From Cystobasidiomycetes sp. EMM_F5 (Eukaryota): a stretch of 64,000 nucleotides of DNA. The notes beneath the pieces were generated by a model, which was not told the origin of the DNA, searched no databases, and saw only the letters and a program-made list of their open reading frames with translations. The position numbers were made by a program, and so were the translations under genes. Shown one piece after another: positions 7,982 through 45,964 of this stretch (within the stretch, counting starts at the first letter, position 1; each line of letters starts with the position of its first letter). The DNA is taken from NCBI GenBank assembly GCA_051047955.1, contig JBPGPT010000001.1, positions 558,001-622,000 of the forward strand, in the 5' to 3' direction.

Positions 7982-10900
7982 TTACAGCTGGACTGAAGAT
8001 ATTTCTTCTATGGTTTCCACAAGCGGAATGTTGCTGATCCGGGCTCTCGATCCAAGTTGCTGATAGAGTGGATGAATGATTCGCCTAGCCGGTAGCATTC
8101 CGTTGTTCGTTCGCTGCTCCTCGCAATCTGCTTTCCAGTTCAGGAGGATCCGCCACGCGACTAGATACGGAAGATCATTGTACCACCATGCACAACTCGA
8201 TGCCTGGTACAATAAACTAGCCTGCAAATCGAACATCAGCCTCTTTATGCTGCAGTGGACGTCTGATGAGCCCTACAGCGACAGTCAGAGTCCATTGATC
8301 GTCCCAGCCGGCCGGTCTTCCATCCGGCAGCTTTCGGAATGCTGTTATCAATTCAAGCCGTTGACTATACTCGTATCTGACGGCATTGGCGAGTGTTCTA
8401 GGTTCCTTAGCAGCAGAATTTTTCGCTTGCATTTTTGCACTCAATGCAGGCTTGTATGCCTTCTGGTAATGCTCCTTGATGCCCTGCCAGACACAGTCAG
8501 CGCAAGCTTTACCTCTGAAGGCCACCTACACTGACTTCAACATGTTTTCGCAGAGTTTGGCAATACTGTTTGGTTACAGGGCACCCTATCGACATCTCGA
8601 CTGCCATACGAGCGGGTTCTAACATGTCGACGTCGCGCAATGTACAGGGCTGCGTTCTGAGAGCAGGCGCGTGGTCGTACCACTGTGTCGCACGTTGTAT
8701 TAGCTGCTCGAAGAAGCTTAAAGACACCGCAGCGGATGGAGTGGACATGAGCTCGATCGGCGAAGAAGCAGAAAAGCTGCTTGACGTTTGTGCTTTAGAA
8801 TGCGGCGAGACTTGCTTCTTTCGACTCCGTAAACGCCGTTGACTAGGTTCATTACCACCAGCTTCTCGAAGGCCTTGATCGATGATTGACTGCTCGTCCG
8901 CTTGGGTTGAGTGAAGCTCCTCCGAGGCAGAGCTGGCATCGCTATCATCGTCCCCATGATCATCGTTGTCCGAAGTCTGCGTATATTCCGCATCGTCGTC
9001 GTCTTCGTAGTTATCGACACAGAAATGTGCCCAAGATTCAACAAGAGTGTCCTCGTCGCTTTCATACTCATTTGGCCTAATATCAACTTTGATCCCGCGA
9101 GTCAGATCAATGTCCATAGAATCATCCTCTTTCGGCAGCGGGGATATCGAGAGGACGCGAAGTTCGGCTGCTATCTCGCCGAAACTCTTTCTGAAGACCC
9201 TTCCAGCTTTAGCAGCATCAAGCGCAAGTGCGAATAGGCGCCCTGAAAGGATAGTTGCGGGATGGAACGCCCCAAGACACCTGCGGGAATGGCAATCAGA
9301 GGAGACACTAAGCAATTTAAATTTGCTGCATCTACTCCTTCATGCTGCTGTTTATCTTGGCAAGGCTCTGATAAACAGTGGCAATAAACAGCGGCCACAG
9401 GAGAATTTTGCTAAGATGGTGGTTGTCGATCCGTAATTTATAGGGAAATTTCTTCGCGGCTGTTCCGCTGAAGAGAGGTACCAAATACTCTAGTTCCGCC
9501 ACGGTACGAAAACGAATACGGGCCGTCTGCTCTTGCTTTCCATTTTCTTTGAATGCGAGCTCAGGAGGCTTTTGAACCATCCAAGTACTTTCGAACCGGA
9601 CAGGATCGGGCAAAATGTCAGCAGGATGATTATTCTCCCAAGCGTCGCATAGCGAGGTATCCCATATTATGTTGCAGCAATCACCTGACATGAACAATGA
9701 TTTACCAGCTTCAGCTTTGACTTATGCGTATATGCAAACGAAATGTGCCGCTTCACACGCACCGTCGTAATCACCGCCGCCTAAAGCAGCCAATAAGGGA
9801 AAATCCAAGCGTGCCTCCGGATTCGTCTTGCTGGAGCATACGATCACGTCGACAAAGTGTTGCAGTTCTGGCACGTCTCTGGCTGTGACCTTTTGAACGT
9901 CGGAAGGCTGTACGCAAGGGGAGCGAGTGACCAAGACTTCGCCTTGTATTACATTTCCCATACGTAAACCTGTGACGGGGTCATGAAACATACCCTGGTA
10001 CGTGGATTCAGACTTTGACTATTTTCATCGTGCATTTTGACTCACATTGGAGAGTTGACAGTAGATTTCACCAGCCTCAAGGCGACCCGACGGATCGATG
10101 CATGCGAACAGGTACCGTGATTTGCCAACGGGTATGCGTAGCTTTTCCGAGTCCTGCTTAATGTCTTGCGCAGTTATGGTTTCCAAGACGCGTATGAACT
10201 CTGGCGTTTTGCGCATTCCGCTGTCCAGCATTTCTATCGCTCGCTCCGCGAAAGATACTGGTCGGCCGCTCTGCGGATCGAACATTGGCTCTGAGCTATC
10301 CGTCAATATGTGACGGTCCTCCACCTCGCATGATACGAAGCGTTCCTTTCGTTCGAGGCCGTGGTCGAGCAGGCGTCGTTCGAAAACCCTTTCGCGAGTT
10401 TCGATCTCTTTGCGAAGCTCAGCATCGCTGCATGTTTTCGAAACTTCGAGCAAGGGTTTTGCAGCGATAGTCATCTGTTGCCGTTGAAGATCCGCAAGTC
10501 TTTCGTGGATAGCCTCGCATTTCGCAACATCCTGTTGCCCAGTCACAAGCGTGTGGATCATTTGTGCTCCTAAACCTTGAGGTGGGCTTGGCGATGACAC
10601 AGCAAGGACCTCGAATTCCCAGGGTGCATTGCTGGGTGCAACGTATTTGACTTGAGACTCGCGGACCTCGATCCAGACGCTCTCGTCCAAGCAGAGAAGT
10701 TCCTTAGGAGGCAACGTCCAGAGACCTGTGCGTAGAGCGTATGTCAGCTACGTAGAATTCAGCATGCCACTTCATCTTCACCTTTGCATCCCTCGATCCT
10801 TGCCTGTGCCGCCACGGGTATATCGTCCAAGGCGAGCGCATCCTTGATACGCTTCGCAAGCTGAAGGGACATGGTAGCATTACCGTCGGACATGACGACT

Positions 10901-12222
10901 TCTGCTGACGAGGGCTCTGGCCAGATTTCCACCTCTGCGCATCGAAACGACATCCCGTTTGTGCGTTCTTTATAGGTCTTGCCGTATCTACAGCTGAGGG
11001 TGAGAGAGCATGCTTCTTCGTGCCCCGCCATTTTACTGAACTTCTTCACGCTGTTTGTCAGCATCCAGTCGTATATGGCGAATTTGTTGGCAGGAGCGTC
11101 GGCGCGAATGGCGTATTGGAAAGATCTGTTCTTGACGTGGCCCATAATGCAGCCTGCATCCATCTTAGTGCGCTTTCTATTTGTGCTGTCAGCTTACTCA
11201 CTGGGAGTGTACTTCAACTTCAATGCTGCGCTCAGTTGCTGCATGCACGCGAAGCTGATGGGCAAAGTGTATGAAGTAATGTCGGGAACCCAACGTACTT
11301 CTTCAACAGGTATTTCGACAAGAGACTTGCTGAGCCACAAGTTGATCCTGGCAGAAAATTTTGCCATTGACATCTCGTCATTTTCGCCATTGCTAAATGG
11401 AATGAGAGTGTTTACAAACGAAGGCAGACTCATGTTGGATATTGGAGGGCCGAGTTCCTTGTCAAATTGTCCATGATGCGTTGCGAAATAAAACAGGCTT
11501 CCATCTTTTTGATGAAAGCAAGAAAACTGCTGTCCCAGGATCTGCAGGGGAAATGGCATAAGAAAGTTCTGCAGTGTATGACTGCCGGTACTGGTCGATC
11601 CGGAAGCTACCCAGAAACTGTCGCCATGCAGCTTAATTCTGATGAGTCTCCTCGCCTCGTTTCGTCGCCAAAGGCGGCGTGAACCGCCGATAGTGGGCGG
11701 AGCCAGTGAGATTGCGATCTTTCCGGCTTTATTGACTTCGAGTATTGCTCTGAAAATCAACACGCCTTTCGCCTCACATTCGTCGTATCCGCCGTGCTGG
11801 TTGAGGGCTGACCAGAACGACTGCGGGGTCCTGAGTGGACACTCGCAGACTGGATACAGTGCCTTCACCAGCTTTTGCAGTACGTCGTACATTTCTTCTC
11901 TGTCACACTGCATCAAAGAGGTGTCGTATCCCGAAAGATGTTCCTCCAAATCTGCAACCTTCAGAGGACCTTGTGGATGGATCCATCTTGCGATCTCCCA
12001 TTGTGCTAGATAATCGAATCGATCTGGTAAAGCGTTGACTGAAGTATCAGCCGGAACCTATTGCAAAACACACAGCAACCCACTATGAAGTTCCATCTGA
12101 AGTTCTTTGCCTACATCGACCACGGAATGCCAGCGTTTCGGACCAGTGCCTACCGTGTGGTATCCTTTGCGGAGAGGATGACCTTCGGCAACGGTCTCCC
12201 ACGAGAGCCATTTGAAATCCAT
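7982..12222 (-). CDS. Cellular RNA-dependent RNA polymerase (RNAi, QDE-1-like); 5' structure uncertain
   Basis: Catalytic GGGDYDG|DCCNIIWD across an intron near 9689-9761. Also 'VLVTRSPCVQPSDVQKV', 'ACIDPSGRLEAGEIY', 'MSDG..MS..LA..I...QARIEGCKGLW' and 'QWEIAR'. Confidence 0.88.
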
Positions 12223-31626: not shown

Positions 31627-32902
31627 GGTTGCTGTAGGAGATTTGGTGTTTCTTCGATTAATCTTTATGCGCGTGCTGTGTTGGAAGGAGCAGAGATGTC
31701 CGCAGAGCAAAAAGGCACAATATGACGCAGATCCGGCAGACGTTGTAGCAAGCTCTGGTCAATAGTGATGCCAGTGGTACTCTCCCAGGAGAATAGACAG
31801 TACTTTACGAATCATCCGGCAAGGGCAAGCTGTCACAAGAGGCTTCAGACGGGCAAGAAGTATCCATCGATGTCATTCCAGTGATGGTGCCGGGATATCA
31901 ATCACACATATCTTTAACATACAGGAAGTACATCGTGTTGTGCACTACATGCACGGCTTTGAAGAGCGAGACATGCGATATCTCTGGTAGCCAGGTTAGC
32001 GTTGTAAGCAGTATATAGGTTAGATAGTGCGGTCCGTATGCGCATGTAGCACGTCCGCGTGGAATGTCTGTGAGTGTGTAGGTGAGATAAGTTGACATTA
32101 ACCACAATGCACTGACGCAACGTGGCATTCCGCAGAGTGTCTGCCATCAAGCGTGCATTTTGCGGAGACACGCAGTCAAGGACGAGGGCCTCCGTCGAAG
32201 TGGAAACCTCAAGACTGTTTACTGTCAGTCATGGCTTTATATCGATTACTCGGGAATGCGTATCCAGATGTTTATCGGTCCTGACCTTTCCCTAAACGAT
32301 CTCTCACAACATGAGCACTTCGCAACTCAGCTTGAGGATGACAGACTCTCATGATGCGGCTGGATTTAGTCGAGTGGATGCGGAGTAAATGTGGACGGTC
32401 GACGCGCTCTAGGCAGACGTCGCGTCTCCGACGCTTGCGGGGCTCCAACATTTAAATCCATCGCCGTCCATGTCTGTCAGCATCACTGTCAGCCCACTTC
32501 CCTGATACGCCATGACTAGGCTGTAATGAGCGAAGCTTGTTATAGCTGCCTTAGGTATTGTACGCGACGCGCAGGCTGTAGATGCAGCCACAGACAAGAC
32601 CGCCAGGAGCAGGCTGTCCATCTACTGCGGGCATATATGCTCGGCACCTTTGACGTTTCGAACAGTCTCCATCTTGTTGCGGTTGCTGCGGAGTCTTGGA
32701 TTCAAGTGTTTCAGTTGCCATTACTTCGCCGTTTCTCTGCTTGGCCCGAACAGAACGGCGCTGGAGGCTGGGAAAGGCATTTACGATCCCAAGGGCTGCA
32801 AGCATACTGCACCGCTGCACCCGACTGCTGTCTTTGCATTCCCTCGCTCAGCGCTCAGATATCGGATCACTCGGGGCTTGAGAAGCGACAAGGCAGCTCA
32901 AG

Positions 32903-34793
32903 ATGCCAAATTTACTGCAGTACATTGCGCTGGCCGTGACGCATCCGGCAGAGTTGCGGGCGGTGGTGCATCGTTCAGTCTTCATGGATGTGCGGGACAT
33001 CAAGACGGACAAGTCGTCTGGCTACGAGAGGCCGACCATGAAACGGTGCTGGGAGCTGCTCGACCATACTTCGCGGTCCTTTGCTGCCGTCATTAAAGAG
33101 CTCGACGACGATCTATGTCGCGTCGTATGCCTCTTCTACCTCGTACTGCGAGGACTGGATACCGTTGAAGATGACATGACCCTCGACCTCGACCTCAAGA
33201 CGAGCACTCTGGAGTCATTTCACGAAAAGCTGACGCAGCCAGGATGGAATTTTACGCAGAGTGTGCCTACTACTCCATATGTAAACTCCCTGCCCCAAGA
33301 TGTACTTACATCTTTTCCTTTGCCAGGCGGCCCAAACGAGCACGACCGAGACGTGTTGATCGAGTTCGACAAGGTCATTCAGGAGCTCATGACGCTAGAC
33401 GAGCGTTATATGAAGGTCATTACACACATATGCAAGTGCATGGGCGCTGGAATGGCGCACTATGCCCGAGTCGGCGCAAAGTCGACAGATGCCTACGCAG
33501 TCGACACGCTGGCGGATTTCGACTTGTACTGCCATTACGTCGCTGGACTGGTCGGAGAGGGAGTCTCTGGCTTGTTTAGTGCCAGTGGAAAGGAGGCTCC
33601 CGAGATTGGTCGCATGCTCACGCTTTCCAATAGCATGGGCTTGTTTTTGCAAAAGACCAATATCATGCGCGATTTCCGGGAAGATTTGGAGGATGGTCGC
33701 TTCTTCTGGCCCACGGAGATTTGGTCGAAGTACACGTCTGATCCGAGAGAGTTCTATCTAAAGGGAGATGACCCTGAAGTGCGAAGGAAAGGCCTTGCTG
33801 CGCTCAACGAAGTCATCCTCGATGTCCTGGTTCACGCGATAGACTCGCTCAACTATCTTTCGCTCCTTAAAAATCAGTCTATATTCCAATTTTGCGCAAT
33901 CCCTCAAGTGATGGCTATCGCGACACTCGAAATCTGCTTCAACAACCCAGATGTATTCCACAAGAATGTCAAGATCCGCAGGTCAACCGCCGTCTACGTG
34001 GGTCGATAGCCCGGGTTTCTGTTCTCACGCTGACAGTCTAATTTACCGGTCCATGCGTTATAGCTCATCAACAGAGCAACCAACGTCAAGGAAGTTGCTA
34101 AAATGTACGTGCAATACGCTCGCAAGATTGTCAAACGCGCTCCCCTTTCGGACCCTTCATACCTCAAGATATGTATCGCGTGCGGGCAAATTGAGCAATG
34201 GCTCGAGACGTATTACCCTTCGTGGCTCTTCCTGCCGGAAGGCGGCGTTCGCAGTCCACTTCCCATCTACTCTGATGAGAAGGGTCTGGAAGGCGTGGAA
34301 GATATCAGGCTTCGACAACTGCCCGCGATGAAAGATCTTCCCGAGCAGAGAGAACGAGATGCTCGCCTCGCTGCATACAGGGCGACCAACGAGATCAGCC
34401 GTATGTCCGGCAGAGACTATCTGATATTATTGTGAGTTGTTCTGAGCGAAGGCTTTCACTTCTTGCTAAGATTGCGTCTGTTGGACTAGCTCATTCGCCT
34501 CGATCCTGATGATTGTCATGCTTACTCTGATGGCAATGGTTGCGACGTTAGTGTGGTACTACACCGACCCCGACGCGTCATCCACAAAGTTGATTGCGAT
34601 CGTCTCGTCTATCTACAACAATTGGAGCGACCAAGCCAAGACTGTAGGCATTCCGATTGTCGGATCATTCTTCCGCCGTCCTGCTTCCAAGGAAGTCAGC
34701 GAAGTGGTAGTCAACACCAGTGCGAGCCTGCTGTCGTCCGTACAGAGCGCACACATTGTCTCGTCGACTGCCATCGCTCGGCCGGACCTGTAA
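32903..34793 (+). CDS. ERG9: Squalene synthase
   Basis: 'TSRSFAAVI', 'YLVLRGLDTVEDD', 'YCHYVAGLVG', 'MGLFLQKTNIMRDFRED', 'FCAIPQVMAIATL', and a C-terminal TM helix. Confidence 0.96.
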
Positions 34794-35208: not shown

Positions 35209-38200
35209 ATGCTCGGAACACGGCGCAGACAGGCTTCGACGAGCGGAAACAACAGCAATGCCGCTAATCTTAACGGCTCGCCGTACAAGGCGGGTTCGGG
35301 TCTCCAAAACTACCCGTCAAAGATGAGCAGCCCTCCGAGCGATGCAAAGGGCAAGGGAGTAAAGCTGTCGCTCGACGACGACCTCGAGGAAGACGAGGAC
35401 AATGGCTTCTACAGCGGAATCAGCCGTAGAAACGCTTCTTCGCCGTCGCTCGCATCCTACGCTTTCGGTAGCAACGGCGGCAGCAACGGCGTAACCAGTG
35501 GCACAAGCAATGGTGTCAATGGTGTGCATGGAGCAAGTGCACACGCCGGCTCCTCCACCGCAGATATCCCCTTGGTCGGATCCGGAAGCAGGTATGTGTA
35601 TTTAATGCAGTCACGGGATATTCGGCTTGGACGAATCGACTAACGAATGATCCACACTCTCAACGTGTAATGTGCTCGTACGGCGTAGAGCAAAGATACT
35701 CTCGCAGCTCGGCCAGGTCGAAAAGCCAGTGCTAGAAAGCGGACCCAGTAACGAGGGCAGGGGGTTCAGGGCATCATCCATGTCATCGCGGCCGTCGATA
35801 GGACAATTCTCATCTTCATCTGGCTCATCTTCAGCCGTCAGTCCTCTTACCCAAGTCCCGCATACATCGCCAAGCCGGGAGCGACAAAAGCTGGGGTTCC
35901 GTAAACACAGCGCTGGCAAACTGTCCTTCTCTGGTTTATCGGGCATGATTAATGCTAGTCCGGTGTCGACTCCCTCGCACATCAGCAGCGGTGTGCTCCC
36001 TCAAGATCAGACCAACTATTTTTCATTTCCGACGTCCTCAACCTCGCCCCCTTCCAGCAGTCCGCAACCCAACAATGTCCCTCCGCTGTCGTTTGGCTCT
36101 TCCTTAGCTGGAAGCAGAAGCAGTTCTTCGCTACAAACCGCCCTACAGACATACGGCGGCAGTTTAAACGCAAATGGCAGCAGCAGTACTCCGAAGAGAT
36201 CGCCAATGAAGATGAATCTGAGTAGCTATCAGCGGTCTGCACCGTCCAGCGTACAAACTTTCAAGATTGGACTGCCTCCTGTTGAACAATCGCCTAGGCA
36301 AACATTGGCGAGTCCAGTCTTGGGTACATCAGCTTCCTCACCAAATATTGCTGCAACCGAGAGGACACTGCACACGGATGATGGACGTCCCGATATCTCT
36401 GTGCACTCCACATTCGGGGGCAGACAATCCTTCTCAGATCTCGATAGGAATATGCGAGTAGATCGAGCGGCTCCCAGGTGGCCAAGTCTCGCAAACGGCA
36501 AATCGACAGATCCAGACCTAGCCGATGATGGTCAACTCGAAGAAATCGTCCCATGGTTGTATCAGAGTAAAGATGTGAGGTTCCGCCTTTGGTTCATTCC
36601 TAGTCGTGTATAGACTGATGGGCTCGATGAGTAGGGACTATCATCCCCGACGAGCCCTCTCAGCCAGCCGCGTATGCGTCAGCACTCGGCTTCACAGACT
36701 CTTGCAGGTAATTCTGCGTCACTCAGAGTATCCAAATCGACAAACAATCTAAAATCCGGACGGCACGACTCAACCGGATCAATAGAGTCACCACCCGGCA
36801 GTCGTGACCGCAAGCCGAGTGGTCGATTCATGGGTATGCTTCGAAAGAAATCTTCTGCTATTGCAGTCAACATACAGGATGTCCTGTCTCCAAATAGAGA
36901 CAGGAGCGACGTATCGCCTCGGGGCAGCCTCTCTGCTACCAATAATGCCAAAGTTCCGTCTCGACCCAAATTGGCTCCTCGGGCAGCGGGGCAGAGCTCC
37001 GAAGATGGCAAGTCTGCGAAGAAGGCCAAAAAGCAGAAGAGAGGCGATTCAACAACCCTGCCCTCGGTTGTCGGCGGGACTGGATATGCACTCGACACCA
37101 ATTTGGATGAGATGGAAGGCATCGTCAACCTCAACCAGCCGTATCAGCCTTTTCCGCGCCCGGGCGATGTGGCATATCAATCTAATGGTCAGATACCAGG
37201 CCTTAGCACTTCGCCAGCCCCGGGCACTCCACCGTCTCCCTCCCAAATGAATGGATACCGGCGACCATCTTTGGCGAGTTCCGCCCGCGAGTTTATGACC
37301 GGCGAAGCCAACGATTTCTCCCCGATTGGCAAGAGATTGGGAATTTCTCGTCGCGATTCCATGGACATCGTTGCGTCCATGAATAATTGGACGCAGAACG
37401 GCGGATTTACAGGCGCAGGTATACCGCATCCTCCTCCTTCAGCCAATGCCTATGATCCGAGCCGGAAAGGCTCGCTAAGTAGTCTTATGGTCAACGATCG
37501 CAGAGCATCCGACGCTACCGGGAACAACGTTGGCGCAGTCAATGATTCTAGTTGGATAGCACCTGATTCTTGGGATGTGAAGCCTCTCAGTAGCGCTCGT
37601 GACGACGACGACGAATCTGAAGATGACGAGCGTGCAGCAGCAGCATCAGATCGCGTAAAGTCTGATGGGGCAAGCACACTGACAACACCGATGCTCGCTG
37701 GGGAAACGCCTGGCGTTGAGCTTGCCGGGCTCAACATTCCGAACGTCGTTAGCAGTCGCGCGACACATAAACTCACCGGCACTCGACAGCCAGCCTTGAA
37801 TGGCACGATTGGCATGTATGGTAAAAGCGGCAATGTTCCCATGGTGGGCCTAATTACCGTTGCTATAGTGTGGTCTTGATTAACATCGATTGTAACAGGG
37901 TGCTATCCGGATCTTCAAACCCGACAACGCTCACACTATACTCAATGTCCCGTACAGTACGAGTGCCGCAGAATTGCTGAGTATGATTAGCAAAAAACCG
38001 GGCTTCATTACTGCCAAGACGCAGGCGCAGTCATACAAGCTGTTCTGTCGCGCTCGCGGCTTAGAGCGAATCATGATGCAATCCGAACGACCGCTCTTAT
38101 GGCAGGAGCGTAAGTTTCTACAAGCTGGCTACGATAAGGATTCGGATAGATTGGAAGAGCTGGGTCGTGAGGACAACTCGTATCTCGTCAAGTTCATTTT

Positions 38201-41200
38201 CAAACCAGAACCGTCTATTAGCTTCCGCGCAGAAGAAGAGGGTCAGGAGGGATTCGAGTATATCGATTTGTCCGCCAGACAGATTGACAATCTCCCGATC
38301 TTTCTGTACAAGCATGCCCACGAAATCATCAGCCTCAACTTGTCTCGCAACTCCCGTTTGCAAATTCCCAGCGATTTTGTGCAAGCCTGCACTTCATTGC
38401 GCGATCTCAAGATGGTAGAGATGGGTATAAAGCGGATCCAGCCCAGCGTTAGGCAAATCGCTGGTCTGACTAGGCTAGATCTTTCCATCAACCGCATCGT
38501 AGATCTCGAACATGCTATGCTCAATGAGCTGCCTGAATTGACTACCCTCTTCATTCACAACAACCGCTTGACCGCTCTACCCGACTACTTCGTTCACTTC
38601 AGCTGCCTAAAATACCTCAATATTTCCAACAATCGCTTCGAGACTTTCCCCGTCGTCGTCTGCGATGTCGCTTCTCTTGTGGATCTGGATGTGTCCTTCA
38701 ATAACCTTTCCGTCTTGCCACCTGAGATAGGGAAGCTCAAAAATCTCCAGACTTTAACACTCTTCAGTAACAACATCACCGTTCTTCCGGCTACACTTTC
38801 TTCGATGACGAAGCTACGGGAATTGGACGTCCGATACAATTTGATAGAAGATTTCTCGCCAGTGAATCTGGCACCTAAGCTCGCTTCTGTCCGCGCTCAA
38901 TACAATGCGGCCAAATCTCTCGAGCTCTTCGCTGGGACACTGTCGGTATTGAACCTGTCACATAACGCATTAACTAGATTCACCATCGTTGGCGGCAGTA
39001 CTGCAGCTCTCCTCACCCATCTCGATCTTTCCCATGCCCGGCTGGAGACAGTCCCGGAAGATCTCTTCGTCTTGTGCACATCGTTGCAATTGCTTGTTCT
39101 CAGTGACAACAAAATTCGAAATATCAGTGATCAACTTGGCAACCTGCAGAAGCTTACCCGACTTCACCTGAACAACAACGCTCTGCTATCCATACCTGCT
39201 TCCATCGGTAGTTTACAGCGTCTGCATACCCTGGACGTCTCCAACAACAAGCTCAGCTCAATCCCGGCATCGATATGGCTGTGCTCGGAATTAACTTTAC
39301 TCAATCTCAGCTCCAACGGCATTGTTGAGGTACCCGACCCTCCCGAAGTGCCAACAGATGAGGATTCGGATCGTAAAATGTCCGCTGGAACATCAACGCG
39401 TGCAGCGCCACCTCTAGCGATGAGCTTGAAGAAATTGTATCTCGCATACAATCGATTCCGGGACGATGTTTTCCGTCCAATTTCGCTAATGACCGGCCTG
39501 ATTCTCCTCAACCTCAGCTTCAATGATATATACGAGATTCCTCCCGGTATGCTTCGACACTGCTATCAACTCACACATCTGCACTTGAGCGGTAATATGC
39601 TCACGAGTCTGCCGGCCGACGACCTCGAGCGCTTGTCAAGCTTACGCTTGCTGCATCTCAATGGCAACAAGCTGCAAACGCTGCCTGCCGAGCTGGCCAA
39701 GCTGAAGGCTCTTCAGACGCTCGACGTTGGTACCAATGCGCTGAAATATAACATAGCAAATTGGCCATACGACTGGAATTGGTGCGTTTGGTGGTGCAGC
39801 AGCGGATGTCATACTGATGATCGTCTGCAGGAATTGGAATCTTGAGCTACGATATCTCAATCTTTCGGGTAATAAGCGTCTCGAAATACGGCCCTCAGCA
39901 CAGAGTGCACATGAGATGTCTCCCACTGGCTCGTCAGTCAAGCGACGCAACCTGTCAGATTTCTCCGCACTATCCAAGATTCGCATCCTCGGCCTGATGG
40001 ATGTTACCCTTATGATACCTTCCGTCCCGGATGAAAGCGAAAATCGACGGGTCCGCACATCTCTCTCTTCGATCAATGAAATGGGTTACGGTGTCGCCGA
40101 TTGCCTTGGCACGCGAGATCACCTTGCAATCATCGACCTCATCGTACCCAAGTTTCGCGGTAAAGACGATGAATGCGTCATTGGCCTGTTCGACGCCGGC
40201 ACAAGTGACGCCGAAACGGGCGCCAAGATTGCAAAGTTCATCACCGACCAATTCGTTCAGCGTTTGACACTGGAGCTCAGCCGGCTCCGGGATGAGGATG
40301 CCTCGCAAGGTCTGAGACGGTCCTTCCTGACATTGCAGCGGGACTGGGGTAATTCAGTGATGCCAGCTTATGATCGAGGGCGAAAGGAATCCGATTTCCT
40401 CGGACAAGGCGAACGCTTTCAGAATGCCGCTGGCTCAGCGAGCGATGTCAAGGCTGCAGCGTCCGCTGCGGTCATCTACATCTACAAGAAGACATTGTAC
40501 GTGGCCAACGTTGGGGACTCTATGGCGATCATTGTCGGTCGAACCATGCTGGCTCGTGTCTTGACAACAAAGCACGAGCCCTGTTCTCGCGACGAAGTCA
40601 CCCGAATCCGCAGCTCAGAAGGATGGGTCTCCATTCGAGGACTAGTCAATGATCTGGTCGAGCATAGTCGGAACTTTGGATGCTTTCACGTCTATCCAGC
40701 AGTCAACACGGATCCAGCTGTTCACGTGCTGGACCTGGTTGACGATGACGAATTTGTCATTGTCGCCAATGGCGGTCTATGGCAGTATCTTTCCTACCAG
40801 GCCGCTATAGATGTTGCGTGGGAGCATCGCGGCGATCCCATGTTGGCGGCTCAGAAACTACGCGATATTGCAATAGCCTACGGCTGCGAAAGTAATGTCT
40901 TGGTGATGGTACGTAATTTGGTGACGAGGTTAAAGTGATGATCGCTAAAAGCAGTCTTGCAGGTGATCAATGTTGGAGACCTCTTCAAGGGCAAACACAT
41001 GCGGCTTAATCGTAGTCTGACGACTCCTGCGACGAGCAATGACGCCTTCTACGATAACAAGTATGTTGGCCGTCGAGTACCAGGCAGTATACCCGGCCTT
41101 CGTGTTGCAGCCGATCAGACTATCGCCCCTACGGGTACTGTTGCCCTGGTCTTCACCGACATACGGAACTCGACAGCTCTATGGGAGACAAATCCAGGGA

Positions 41201-42321
41201 TGCAAAATGCCATGCGCATACATCACGAGCTGATGCGCCGGTTGATCCGTGCATACGACGGGTACGAGGTCAAAACGGAAGGTGACGCCTTCATGGTGTC
41301 ATTTACTTCAATTACTTCTGCTGCATTGTTCTGCTTCATGGTTCAGCTGCGGCTACTCGAAGCAGATTGGCCCGCAGAACTTCTGATGAGTGATGAGGGC
41401 AAGGAGATTTACGGACCATATGGCGAAACCATTTACAAAGGGCTGTCTGTCCGCATGGGTTTACATTGGGGCACTCCAATCTGTGAGCAAGACCCAGTAA
41501 ACCTCCGCATGGATTACCTGGGACCGGTCGTCAACAGAGCAGCTCGCGTCAGTGGCGTGGCAGAAGGGGGCCAAATCACTGCAAGCGCTGACGCTGTGGA
41601 GTTGCTTCGAGCGTTATTGAGCGCGACCAGCGACAACGAACACGAATTGGATCAGCCACTGGTCGATCCGAACGAGCTGGACCCTGCCACAAAACGAGAT
41701 ATTGTTGCCTTGCGACAAACAGGCTTCTGTGTAACGGAACTTGGCGAGAAGAAGCTTAAAGGCCTAGAAACCCCAGAATTTCTCTCCGTTATTTATCCAA
41801 CCGCCTTGACTGGCCGAATATCGGGTGGCAAAATAAGAGAAGCAATAGTTCCACAAGATGCATCGTCAGCGACGCCTCATCTAGCGATCGGCCCGGTCAC
41901 GCAGCCAGCTCCAGCGTTGCTTGAAACCAACGACATCCGTAATCTGGGCAATATATGCCTTCGTCTGGAAGCCCTTAGCGCCGGTAATGATCATCGCCTG
42001 TATGAGACTTCTTCGGCCTATCCCAATTCAGGAACAAATTCGCCTGCTATTGGAGCAATCACATCTACTGCCGCCCCTCGCCGTCGAGTCACTCTTTCCT
42101 CCCATCTGCTGGTCGCAAATCAGATCCGCAATGATGCCACGGACGAGCAATTGGTAGTCCTTCTAGAACTACTCATTGTTCGCATCGAGAATGTCCTATC
42201 GAGCCTTCAACTCCGGCAGCTGGGACCGCTGACCAACGTGCTCAGCGCCTTGAGTGACGCCATCAAAGTGGACCCGCAGCAGATCATGCAGGCGTTGTCC
42301 ATGCTGGCTCAGCTCTTGTAA
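35209..42321 (+). CDS. CYR1: Fungal adenylate cyclase (Ras-association, LRR, PP2C-like and class III cyclase domains)
   Basis: 'WIAPDSWDV', a long LRR array, a PP2C-like domain, and catalytic 'VFTDIRNST', 'EVKTEGDAFM', 'MDYLGPVVNRAAR'. Confidence 0.96.
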
Positions 42322-42588: not shown

Positions 42589-45500
42589 TCACTTGGCGGT
42601 AATGCCACCCATCTGTTGCACGAAAGTTGACCACTGTTTGTCTTGCTGACTACTCGATTTCCGGAGCGAACTTGCCAGATTATGGCTTGTGTTTGCCGTC
42701 TGCGCACCTCTTCGACTCTCGGTAGATGTATTGGCGATTTTCTGGGTAGCGGTCGTGGCTTTCCGAGATGTCAGAGGCATGCTGTTGCTGTGACGAGTTG
42801 CAACCTCGGGAGACGGTGCATTGGAACGCGGACGTCGTTCAGTTTTCTTCTCCACCTTGCACTTCGCATTGGTCATTGCGGACGAGTTAGACGGCATCGC
42901 TTGTGGTAGCGATCCTTCGCATGGCACGATCCCCACTACCTGCGGGGAGATTTGCATAACGGGAGGTCGGGCTGGGAGCGAATGATTCACAAGCACTGCA
43001 TTGTACGGCTCTTGCACTGTTCTGTCAAGTGGTGCAAGCACTTCAGGTACAGCAACGAGGGATCGTACAGATGGCATCACGTCATTGGCAGGTCTGAGGT
43101 TGAGCAGATCATCCACCGTGTAGTGAACATGATTGCGATCAGCCGCGAGCTTCGCAGCAGGTCGTCCGACGCGCATGATGGCGGGGTCATCTTCAATCTT
43201 GCGCTGAACAGCCTTTTTGACCGCAGTGTCATGGCTGGCTTGAGACTTTTGGTAATTAGCAATGGTAATGCCACCACTGAGCGGAGCCGATGCTGGTGCT
43301 CCGGTATGGCTAGGTACCGCAGAAGCAGTCTTTGGAGGAGCCGGTACGAATGAAGGTACGCTTGAAGCGAGGATAGGATATTGTACAGGCATCTTTTGCC
43401 ACGGCTGTACGTTAGGTGCGCCAAATGGCATACTTGCCAGCTGTTGGCGATGCGTAGTTTCAATTAGATACTGCAATTGCTGCGTCTGATGTTGCAGGTA
43501 TGCCATGTGACCCTGAAGTGTTGCGCCTGGTAGACCGAAGGCGCTTGCTGGAGCATGCATATACGGCAATCCGAGCGGTAGACTGTACATGCCCAACGGA
43601 TGGAGCACCTGCGATGTGGGTCCTGAATAGACTGAAGCTCTATCGTGCACTATTTGTTCGAGGCGATTCGCACGAAATGCTTGAAAGGGTAAGTCCAGGC
43701 CAAGTCCATGGTTGTTACTCTCCGAATTAAAGGGTGTTGCCATTGGTTGCTCCATGCCATTGCCACTTGAGGTGTAGAAGACGCGGACGGGCGTGTCACG
43801 TCGTGGGAGACCCTCTTCTCCTGCGAAGGGTGCGTCCTTGGCCTTCGCGCCGATAATCGAAGGCACCTTGGCCAGTTCTGGAGCCCGTGAAGGAGCACTC
43901 GGCACTAGGTCGTGAGGAACACTGTCGGTGACGTTGATCGTCGACGTCCCGTGGTTGCTAGATACTTTTGCGAAATCATCTAAGACCCGGGGAACAACCT
44001 CTTCAGAATTGGCAAGGCTGTCGGCCTGCACTGTCGCGTCGCCATTCGCTCTGAGTCGTTCGAGTATACGAGCGACCTCTCGACGACTGTCTCGCTCGAT
44101 CCTAGCTTGATCACGCTTAAAGACGTAACTTCGAGCCTGCTCAGCTCTCGCGTGAGCTCTAGCATTCGCACTGGTATTGGCGCTTATGCGTGCACGACTG
44201 TTGTTATCAGCACTTGGCTTATTTTGCTCGTTCTGTACTATGGCGACGGAAGGCGCCAGGGCAGTACTGATGTCAGGTAAGGGGTGTTCCTTTTCGACAG
44301 GACTGAAAACTGCTGTGCCAGCATCGCTTGGACTAGTCTCCGGTGTCGTGTCATTTCCCGAAACTACGGGACTTATGGTGGTAGCCGTGGTAGCGGGGCT
44401 GTAGTTCTGAGCGCGAGTCTTTTGCGAGCTCAACGGGGCGACCTTTTCATATGGGTGCGCTTCTTTGTGATCAAAGGCGTAAGCATCAACGCCGCTAAGA
44501 CATTTCAAGTGCAACGAGTCAGCTTTCGTTACGGAGCATCCGAGTTGACGGGACTTACGAAGGACACCGGGCTGCAAGCGCGACATGAAATGTACGAGAC
44601 AGATAGTCAGCTTGCACAAGTCCGCCGATGATATGATTGCGACTCACCATACGGCAATGTATTAGGACCAATGAGCGTAGGAATACGTTTGACCTCGGTA
44701 GCAGCATGACGGGGCACAAACTCGGGTGTGCTGGCTCGCAGCTGAACCTTCGGAAGTTTAGGAGTCGGTGCTAGGTGAGACACTGGAGAATTGACGGGTG
44801 CCCTGGGCAAACCGTGAATAGTATTACCCTCCATGACCTGGCTCAGCTTTGCATTGATGGCTGCGAGTGTGGCTTGACTAACGATGCCATCTGCTGGCAG
44901 GCGAGTGAGGGCAGATGTACGTGACGGTGTACAAGCGTCAAAGTCCGACTCAGTATCAAGGTCGCATGCGTGAAGATTCCAGAGGATCTCTTCGATGCTC
45001 TCCAACGAGCCAGACTTGGAACCACTTTCATCGCTCAATTGGCCACTGTCTCCAGTCAGCCTACTGATACCGACCGTAGTATCGGACACCTCGAAAGGTA
45101 GGATGACCTGCTGTTTCGGGAAGGTGACGTGCGACTTGGTGATGTTGACTGAAGTAGGAGAGTCTGCGGCTGGGCGAATGGTCAAGAGCGCCCCGCGCGA
45201 TGGTGTAGATGAGCGATGAGCAAGTGGTGAGAGATTGGATACATGTAAGCGGATGATGATGATTTGGAGTCGGCAGCTGATGTACTCGAGGTGAGGACGT
45301 AATGACTGCAGCGAATCAATGTTAGATCTCTTCTTCGGGTAAAATTAGACTCGGATCTCACTCACGTAGACAGAGGTGTAGGCTGGACTGCCTCGGAGAT
45401 GCTTGCAGCAGTCATTTCTTCAGTGACTTCATGTATGGCTTCCAGCTTTGGCGACTTGAGAAACGAATGCGAATTCGAATAGCAGTCGCGTTCGCCACCC

Positions 45501-45964
45501 GCGCGTATACTATCACGACCAGACAGGGATGACGAGGTGGACAGAGATAGAGATGAGGTGGGATAGCGCTCATCGACGTAGTCGGACAGTGAGTGATGGA
45601 CATGTGTGAATATGGCACTCCCAGAACTAGATTTGGTTGCGTTGCTCTCGCTACCTTCGTCAGGGGCTAGTCCTTCAGCAGACGCACCTTGACCTGATGC
45701 GCCAGATACAGCACGGCAGATTGTCTTGACGACTGCGCCGTCATCGTCTGCATTCTCCGCAGTCTCAATCTTGTCACCGCTGTCGTCGCCTTCGCTGGAC
45801 TTGGGACCTCCCACAGACCCTCGACGGTCTCGAATGCCCAGCGATTCGTCCGAATTGCCAGACTGGTCTGGATGAGCTGCCAAAGGAGTATCGCCATGCT
45901 TTGCAACTGCGTCTAGTTCTTGCACAGTCGCCAGTGTCATGGCCGCACTGTTTGGCGTGGCCAT
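42589..45964 (-). CDS. Uncharacterized low-complexity protein with PAM2-like and eIF4E-binding-like motifs; link to the 5'-most exon (45362-45964) uncertain
   Basis: Long Ser/Pro/Ala-rich ORFs. 44607-45185 joins 42589-44619 through introns 44572-44647 and 44495-44558 around a 13-nt exon. Confidence 0.65.

Follow-up and report, generated by a model that had tools for sequence, protein, structure and literature searches.

PAM2-type sites and a candidate eIF4E-binding motif in a nearly orphan disordered protein of Cystobasidiomycetes sp. EMM_F5

Could a protein without the core of eIF4G contact both ends of a messenger RNA? The question is raised by a gene on the minus strand of a 64,000-nucleotide window (contig JBPGPT010000001.1, positions 558,001 to 622,000; assembly GCA_051047955.1) from Cystobasidiomycetes sp. 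EMM_F5, a basidiomycete phyllosphere (leaf-surface) yeast for which no sister taxon was reported among 27 members of the class (PMC12697161). [quoted passage not shown] The PAM2 side gained support, since both sites of the only relative found (P0005) fit the pattern [LP]xxxAxxFxP, and the eIF4E side lost some, since its motif is absent from that relative. We tentatively favour a lineage-restricted messenger ribonucleoprotein (mRNP) adaptor that would act through short linear motifs, dock on Pab1 and carry a species-specific eIF4E cassette. On the evidence of short motifs, a predicted gene model and one distant relative, we regard this protein as a candidate variant of regulators that are known to work through motifs.

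The coding sequence runs from an ATG at 45964 to a stop codon at 42589-42591 (42589 to 45964, minus strand, as are all further coordinates of this gene), and the edge at 45185 given in the original prediction does not delimit the gene. From the open reading frame (ORF) product, a cluster look-up led to the NCBI entry 'hypothetical protein EMMF5_000219' (P0006; KAL7010199.1), of 1048 residues. When the four-exon join deposited for this entry was rebuilt from the window DNA, all introns were of the GT-AG type and the translation agreed with P0006 letter for letter. We take this to be a real four-exon gene, with both motifs in one predicted protein. The two peptides lie exactly where they had been placed, YTVDDLLNLRP at 43090-43122 (residues 872-882) and VQLRASTPEFVP at 44712-44747 (residues 377-388).

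PAM2-type sites in the protein and its one relative

P0006 is unnamed and, as had been suspected, close to an orphan. A HMMER search of 1,835,955,588 representative proteins (E<=0.001) returned two matches, the protein itself and P0005, a protein of 539 residues from the Logan collection (E 1e-4). Three word-index homologue searches (8000, 8000 and 670 scored candidates) recovered the query only and missed P0005, and are thus insensitive here. Metagenome scans gave 450 and 70 pattern matches, none of which was confirmed by tblastn, and in the ESM Atlas the best score was 0.77, for the translation of exon 4 alone (P0001), with no usable match for P0006. Exon 4 and P0005 proved collinear by BLASTP (49 bits, E 2e-10; 43 bits, E 2e-8), at an overall identity of about 30%. 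The protein therefore appears nearly orphan and confined to a narrow, poorly sampled lineage, with conservation limited to short islands. P0005 is a plain ORF call, as are other Logan proteins (compare P0004 and P0007, below), so its sequence reflects uninterrupted DNA.

The PAM2 consensus is xxLNxxAxEFxP, in which the leucine and above all the phenylalanine anchor the peptide on MLLE (PMC9249222), a role for these two residues that is also described elsewhere (PMC7356810). Its FxP spacing differs from the FxxP of PAM2-like sequences (PMC9249222). The site recognised originally, VQLRASTPEFVP (site 1), has Leu3, Glu9, Phe10 and Pro12, with Arg in place of Asn4 and, as was pointed out at the time, Thr in place of Ala7. 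A second site that had been missed, PILASSVPSFVP (site 2; 43377-43342, residues 787-798), has Leu3, Phe10 and Pro12, with Ala for Asn4 and Val for Ala7. P0005 likewise contains two sites: site a, SNLRSEAIPFYP, with Leu3, Ala7, Phe10 and Pro12, and site b, GVPSATAIDFRP, with Ala7, Phe10 and Pro12 and a Ser at position 4. All four show the FxP spacing of PAM2, not FxxP.

The frequency of these patterns was estimated from 20000 composition-preserving shuffles, for patterns partly chosen after the data had been seen. The frame L......F.P occurs twice in P0006 (at 379 and 789) against an expectation of 0.114, and at least two occurrences were obtained in 0.5% of shuffles; the single occurrence in P0005 has a frequency of 4.6%. 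Leucine stands at position 3 in two of the three F.P sites of P0006, and both F.P sites of P0005 combine Leu or Pro at position 3 with Ala at position 7. A further pattern, which we take to be the ELM-style PAM2 expression, matches P0005 at 307 (0.26% of shuffles), and it is the only such pattern matched by site b, which starts with Pro. Position within the protein points the same way for one pair of sites: site 2 lies 12 residues past an MPV island common to both proteins and site b 15 residues past it, in the same inter-island segment. The recurrence of PAM2-type sites across so distant a pair is the strongest evidence that the family carries a real motif class, as judged from the two sequences.

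One further peptide of P0006, HDLVPSAPSRAP (43879-43914), aligns with the first PAM2-type site of P0005 (NLRSEAIPFYP), keeping the Leu, Ala and Pro and replacing the Phe anchor by Arg; it looks like a decayed copy of such a site.

In the adaptor reading, docking on Pab1 through PAM2-type sites, two here and two in P0005, would be the family trait. The chance that at least one of the sites in P0006 binds the Pab1 MLLE domain approaches even without reaching it.

Accessibility of the motifs follows from the predicted disorder of the protein. In the AlphaFold2 (AF2) model of the whole protein the mean predicted local distance difference test score (pLDDT) is 35.7, with 957 of the 1048 residues below 50 and none at or above 90; in the model of P0001, built with its one relative, the mean is 41.7 and 511 of 634 residues are below 50. 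P0006 is therefore predicted to be almost wholly disordered, with no confident fold. Pfam returned no family for any of three protein pieces (E<=1) or for the whole 1048 residues (E<=10), which bears out the earlier statement that a recognisable folded domain is lacking. The same applies to the MIF4G core of eIF4G, the absence of which had also been proposed: neither MIF4G nor MA3 nor W2 was found with Pfam. A Q/P/M-rich segment reported in the original prediction is real, residues 701-800 being nearly uncharged (2% K+R, 1% D+E), with Q, P, M, L and H abundant.

The eIF4E-type motif and its 47-residue cassette

YTVDDLLNLRP is the single match to Y....L[LMFIVW] in P0006 (Y872-L878), and its Y0, L5, L6 and R9 fit YX4L-Phi-X2-R/K, which makes it a candidate canonical eIF4E-binding motif. 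It was described in the original prediction as very close to the start of yeast Caf20, given there as YTIDELFQLKP. When R, K or Q is demanded at position 9, where R881 stands here and is followed by Pro, 4.2% of the 20000 shuffles match. In the extended consensus R/K occupies position 9 and, in metazoans, position 2 as well, and Ct eIF4G is described as having neither (PMC6061780). The residue at position 9 is K13 in p20, which places the tyrosine of p20 at residue 4, and K118 in Eap1p (PMC6061780). Position 2 is Val in the present motif, so the metazoan half of the extended consensus is not matched. A short helix of low confidence is predicted within the motif in both AF2 models (P0001 460-464; P0006 874-877).

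The motif lies in a stretch of 47 residues (870-916; 42988-43128) that corresponds to a gap in the alignment with P0005. The same stretch holds a hydrophobic run, SLVAVPEVLAPL, 15-26 residues past the Tyr of the motif, which could, as a guess, act as a non-canonical element on the lateral surface of eIF4E. As read from the alignment, this cassette is either a gain in EMM_F5 or a loss in P0005. Two technical explanations were rejected. An unannotated in-frame intron would require one of three GT..AG spans that remove the motif, and these have the donors GTCGGA or GTTCAC, versus GTGAGT and GTAAGT in the three introns of the gene. A mis-spliced model of P0005 is ruled out because P0005 is a plain ORF call.

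Within the adaptor reading the cassette would be a species-level addition, less likely than the PAM2 trait, consisting of an extended eIF4E-binding helix (YTVDDLLNLR) and the hydrophobic run placed on the lateral surface of eIF4E. On poly(A)-bound mRNAs it would rival eIF4G, in the manner of Caf20 and Eap1 of budding yeast, and the absence of a MIF4G core would point to repression or storage rather than activation. We consider it doubtful that the Tyr motif binds eIF4E. That both eIF4E and the Pab1 MLLE domain are bound, giving an eIF4G-free cap-to-tail clamp that would hold polyadenylated mRNAs closed yet untranslatable, is improbable.

Weighing chance, the gene model and conserved islands

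Several observations weigh against the adaptor reading. On the PAM2 side, Asn4 is reported to stabilise a turn, and a residue bulkier than Ala at position 7 is described as sterically highly unfavourable (PMC7356810); the P0006 sites carry Arg or Ala at the former position and Thr or Val at the latter. The Pfam PAM2 model (PF07145) gave no match at E<=10 for P0006, for either of two 30-residue peptides or for P0005, a negative qualified by the HMMER filters, which may drop short weak matches; in P0005 the only Pfam match at E<=10 was an unrelated, sub-threshold one to PGC7_Stella (E 0.31, 11.5 bits versus a cut-off of 32.3). The P0005 ORF begins downstream of site 1, so the alignment covers the region of site 2 only. 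No match among PDB chains was returned by phmmer for motif peptides of 85, 24 and 30 residues (E<=10) or for the whole protein (E<=1). On the eIF4E side, the minimal motif occurs in 24% of the 20000 shuffles (shuffle mean 0.275), about 15% of Saccharomyces cerevisiae proteins carry it and binding is stated to be unpredictable from it (PMC7139794). The Pfam CAF20 model gave no match at E<=10, 30-residue motif peptides included. The Tyr motif lies in a stretch missing from P0005, between the conserved DPAIM and LPARP islands, and a scan of the 539-residue P0005 ORF for YxxxxL-hydrophobic found no motif. It therefore fails as a conserved island, as far as one very distant relative can tell. To these may be added the framing of the patterns partly after the data had been seen, and the ab initio origin of the deposited four-exon model (funannotate; PMC12697161).

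Several of these points favour the alternative that the motifs have arisen by chance or serve other partners, the protein being a fast-evolving disordered one (for example in signalling, transcription or a condensate) that binds neither eIF4E nor Pab1. The character of the best islands adds to its case: the Arg-rich helix, DPAIM, LPARP, RSNAPSPE and WxxFVQQ are not known translation motifs. It has more difficulty with the PAM2 frame, since four FxP sites in two very distant homologues are hard to obtain by chance at the shuffle frequencies given above, and with a Tyr motif, in a disordered region, that carries the extended Arg at position 9 and then a Pro. We regard this alternative as a sizeable possibility.

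Under a second alternative the gene model is in error and each motif has its own product, one ending at 44607 through retention of intron 2 and the other comprising 665 residues from an ATG at 44586, or else exon 1 is a gene of its own. The deposited model consists of exon 1 (45366-45964), which encodes an acidic, Ser-rich N-terminus; intron 1 (45277-45365; 89 nucleotides, GTGAGT...ATCAG); exon 2 (44648-45276), which carries site 1; intron 2 (44572-44647; 76 nucleotides, GTGAGT..GCTGAC..TTGCAG); a micro-exon of 13 nucleotides (44559-44571) that keeps exons 2 and 4 in frame; intron 3 (44495-44558; 64 nucleotides, GTAAGT..GCTGAC..CTTAG); and exon 4 (42589-44494; 634 codons and the stop), the translation of which is P0001. 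Genes of the assembly were predicted with funannotate, and RNA data are not mentioned in the available text of the genome description (PMC12697161). The split is made easier by this ab initio origin, by a join that requires the micro-exon, itself an ab initio call on which the reading frame depends, and by the ORF from ATG 44586, which stays open through intron 3. Retention of intron 2 leads to the stop at 44607, and skipping of the micro-exon to a frameshift and early stop. Against a split, all three introns are complete with a GTRAGT donor, and the two short ones (introns 2 and 3) have in addition a GCTGAC branch site and an acceptor. The frame of exon 2 comprises 245 open codons and has its first ATG only at 44834, with 170 codons open upstream of it, so it must be spliced to upstream coding sequence. 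Between the stop at 44607 and the ATG at 44586 there are only about 20 nucleotides, too few for a terminator and a promoter, and a two-gene version is in our view implausible. Overall, we judge separate products to be quite improbable.

The uncertain part of the model is intron 1, which the annotation ends at the second AG past a CTAAC branch site, a point that also speaks for the split. Were the first AG (45306), 14 nucleotides past the branch site, used instead, the frame would stop at 45182 and yield a separate product of about 258 residues. This leaves the N-terminal third of the deposited model uncertain; because this uncertainty is confined to the N-terminus, the presence of both motifs in one protein is unaffected.

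Prokaryote-style ORF calls of this eukaryotic gene are held in a public collection, covering 42589-44586 and 44607-45182 of the window (minus strand). P0004 is an ATG ORF that reads through intron 3, and P0007 begins at a TTG taken as Met. Such entries can mislead comparisons of homology and length.

The islands common to P0006 and P0005 are the Arg-rich helix, MPV, DPAIM, LPARP..SP..GI[IV]P, RSNAPSPE and a C-terminal W[ST]xFVQQ. Best conserved is the Arg/Ala-rich amphipathic helix (residues 518-565; 44041-44184), which aligns with P0005 by BLASTP at 38% identity over 47 residues (E 2e-8) and is the sole confidently predicted element, modelled at P0001 97-149 (pLDDT 73-94) and at residues 512-563 of the whole protein. 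A two-copy complex prediction of this helix (P0001 92-158) returned no support and is evidence neither way. The DPAIM island (43174-43188) is identical in P0005, as are all eight residues of RSNAPSPE (42805-42828). The LPARP...SP...GIVP island (42922-42978) is common to both proteins, and the C-terminal island QWSTFVQQMGG (42604-42636) corresponds to DWTAFVQQRMSG in P0005. Basic residues precede RSNAPSPE in both (RRPRS here, RKIRS in P0005), and we infer a possible phosphorylation site here, both basophilic and proline-directed. In the adaptor reading the amphipathic helix, RSNAPSPE and WxxFVQQ would be further interaction or regulatory sites.

Other genes were recognised elsewhere in the window. 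At 35651-42321 (plus strand) lies a large Cyr1-type adenylate cyclase gene, whose consecutive ORF pieces bear G-alpha-binding, RA, LRR, PP2C and cyclase catalytic domains. This gene and that of P0006 converge, with about 267 nucleotides between the two stop codons. At 10028-12057 (minus strand) matches of two ORF pieces to the RNA-dependent RNA polymerase family (PF05183) suggest a polymerase gene of the RNA interference type. An ORF of the squalene/phytoene synthase family (PF00494) lies at 32882-34006 (plus strand) and may have a bearing on the yellow-orange colour reported for colonies of the isolate (PMC12697161).

Relation to known systems and significance

By sequence, P0006 is a detectable homologue of none of the systems that it resembles, namely Caf20, Eap1, the PAM2 proteins, Upa2 and eIF4G. 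Caf20 (p20) and Eap1 share with it a disordered character, a YX4L-hydrophobic helix with a basic residue at position 9, a downstream hydrophobic element and the lack of a MIF4G core (PMC6061780). P0006 differs from both in that no sequence homology was detected in Pfam or by phmmer against the PDB, the motif is not conserved in its one relative and the non-canonical element is a guess. In the available text of PMC7139794, p20 and Eap1 are reported in Saccharomycotina only. The PAM2 proteins Paip2, eRF3, ataxin-2, Pan3 and GW182 have Leu3, Phe10 and Pro12 with FxP spacing in a disordered region, as P0006 does, and site 1 adds Glu9; P0006 departs from them by Arg or Ala for Asn4, Thr or Val for Ala7 and the absence of a Pfam PAM2 score.

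That P0006 is a highly diverged orthologue of Upa2, the multi-PAM2 scaffold in the endosomal transport of basidiomycete mRNAs, is the least probable alternative: Upa2 is also large and mostly disordered, with several PAM2 motifs and orthologues reported in Pucciniomycotina (10.1101/467787; 10.1101/455378), but P0006 lacks GWW (3 Trp in 1048 residues, none adjacent), has two PAM2-like sites versus four, half the length and no C-terminal coiled coil in the AF2 models, and HMMER over 1.84 billion representatives returned no Upa2-like relative. As a functional parallel, Upa2 of Ustilago maydis, a proposed mRNP scaffold, is likewise a mostly disordered basidiomycete protein with several PAM2-type sites; an eIF4E motif is not reported for it in the available text of 10.1101/455378.

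Two systems resemble the proposed role rather than the protein. In Leishmania, eIF4E4 and PABP1 link cap to tail via PAM2 and bypass eIF4G (PMC6379680). The PAM2 motif there is on the cap-binding protein itself; in the present case the bridging or blocking would fall to a third protein. [quoted passage not shown] Lacking MIF4G, MA3 and W2, P0006 could not, unlike eIF4G, recruit eIF4A or eIF3.

The literature searches made yielded no description of a basidiomycete eIF4E-binding repressor protein (4E-BP), or of a fungal protein in which an eIF4E motif is combined with PAM2. The protein is a candidate recognised by its sequence motifs, in an organism without close sequenced relatives. If the protein binds both eIF4E and Pab1, it would be the first repressor of the eIF4E-binding kind to be described among fungi other than Saccharomycotina, and its grip on both mRNA ends without the helicase-recruiting core of eIF4G would represent a simple closed-loop decoy of natural origin. 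It would further provide a clean case of the gain or loss of a motif cassette in a disordered scaffold, with a 47-residue unit as the variable element within a family of Pab1 adaptors.

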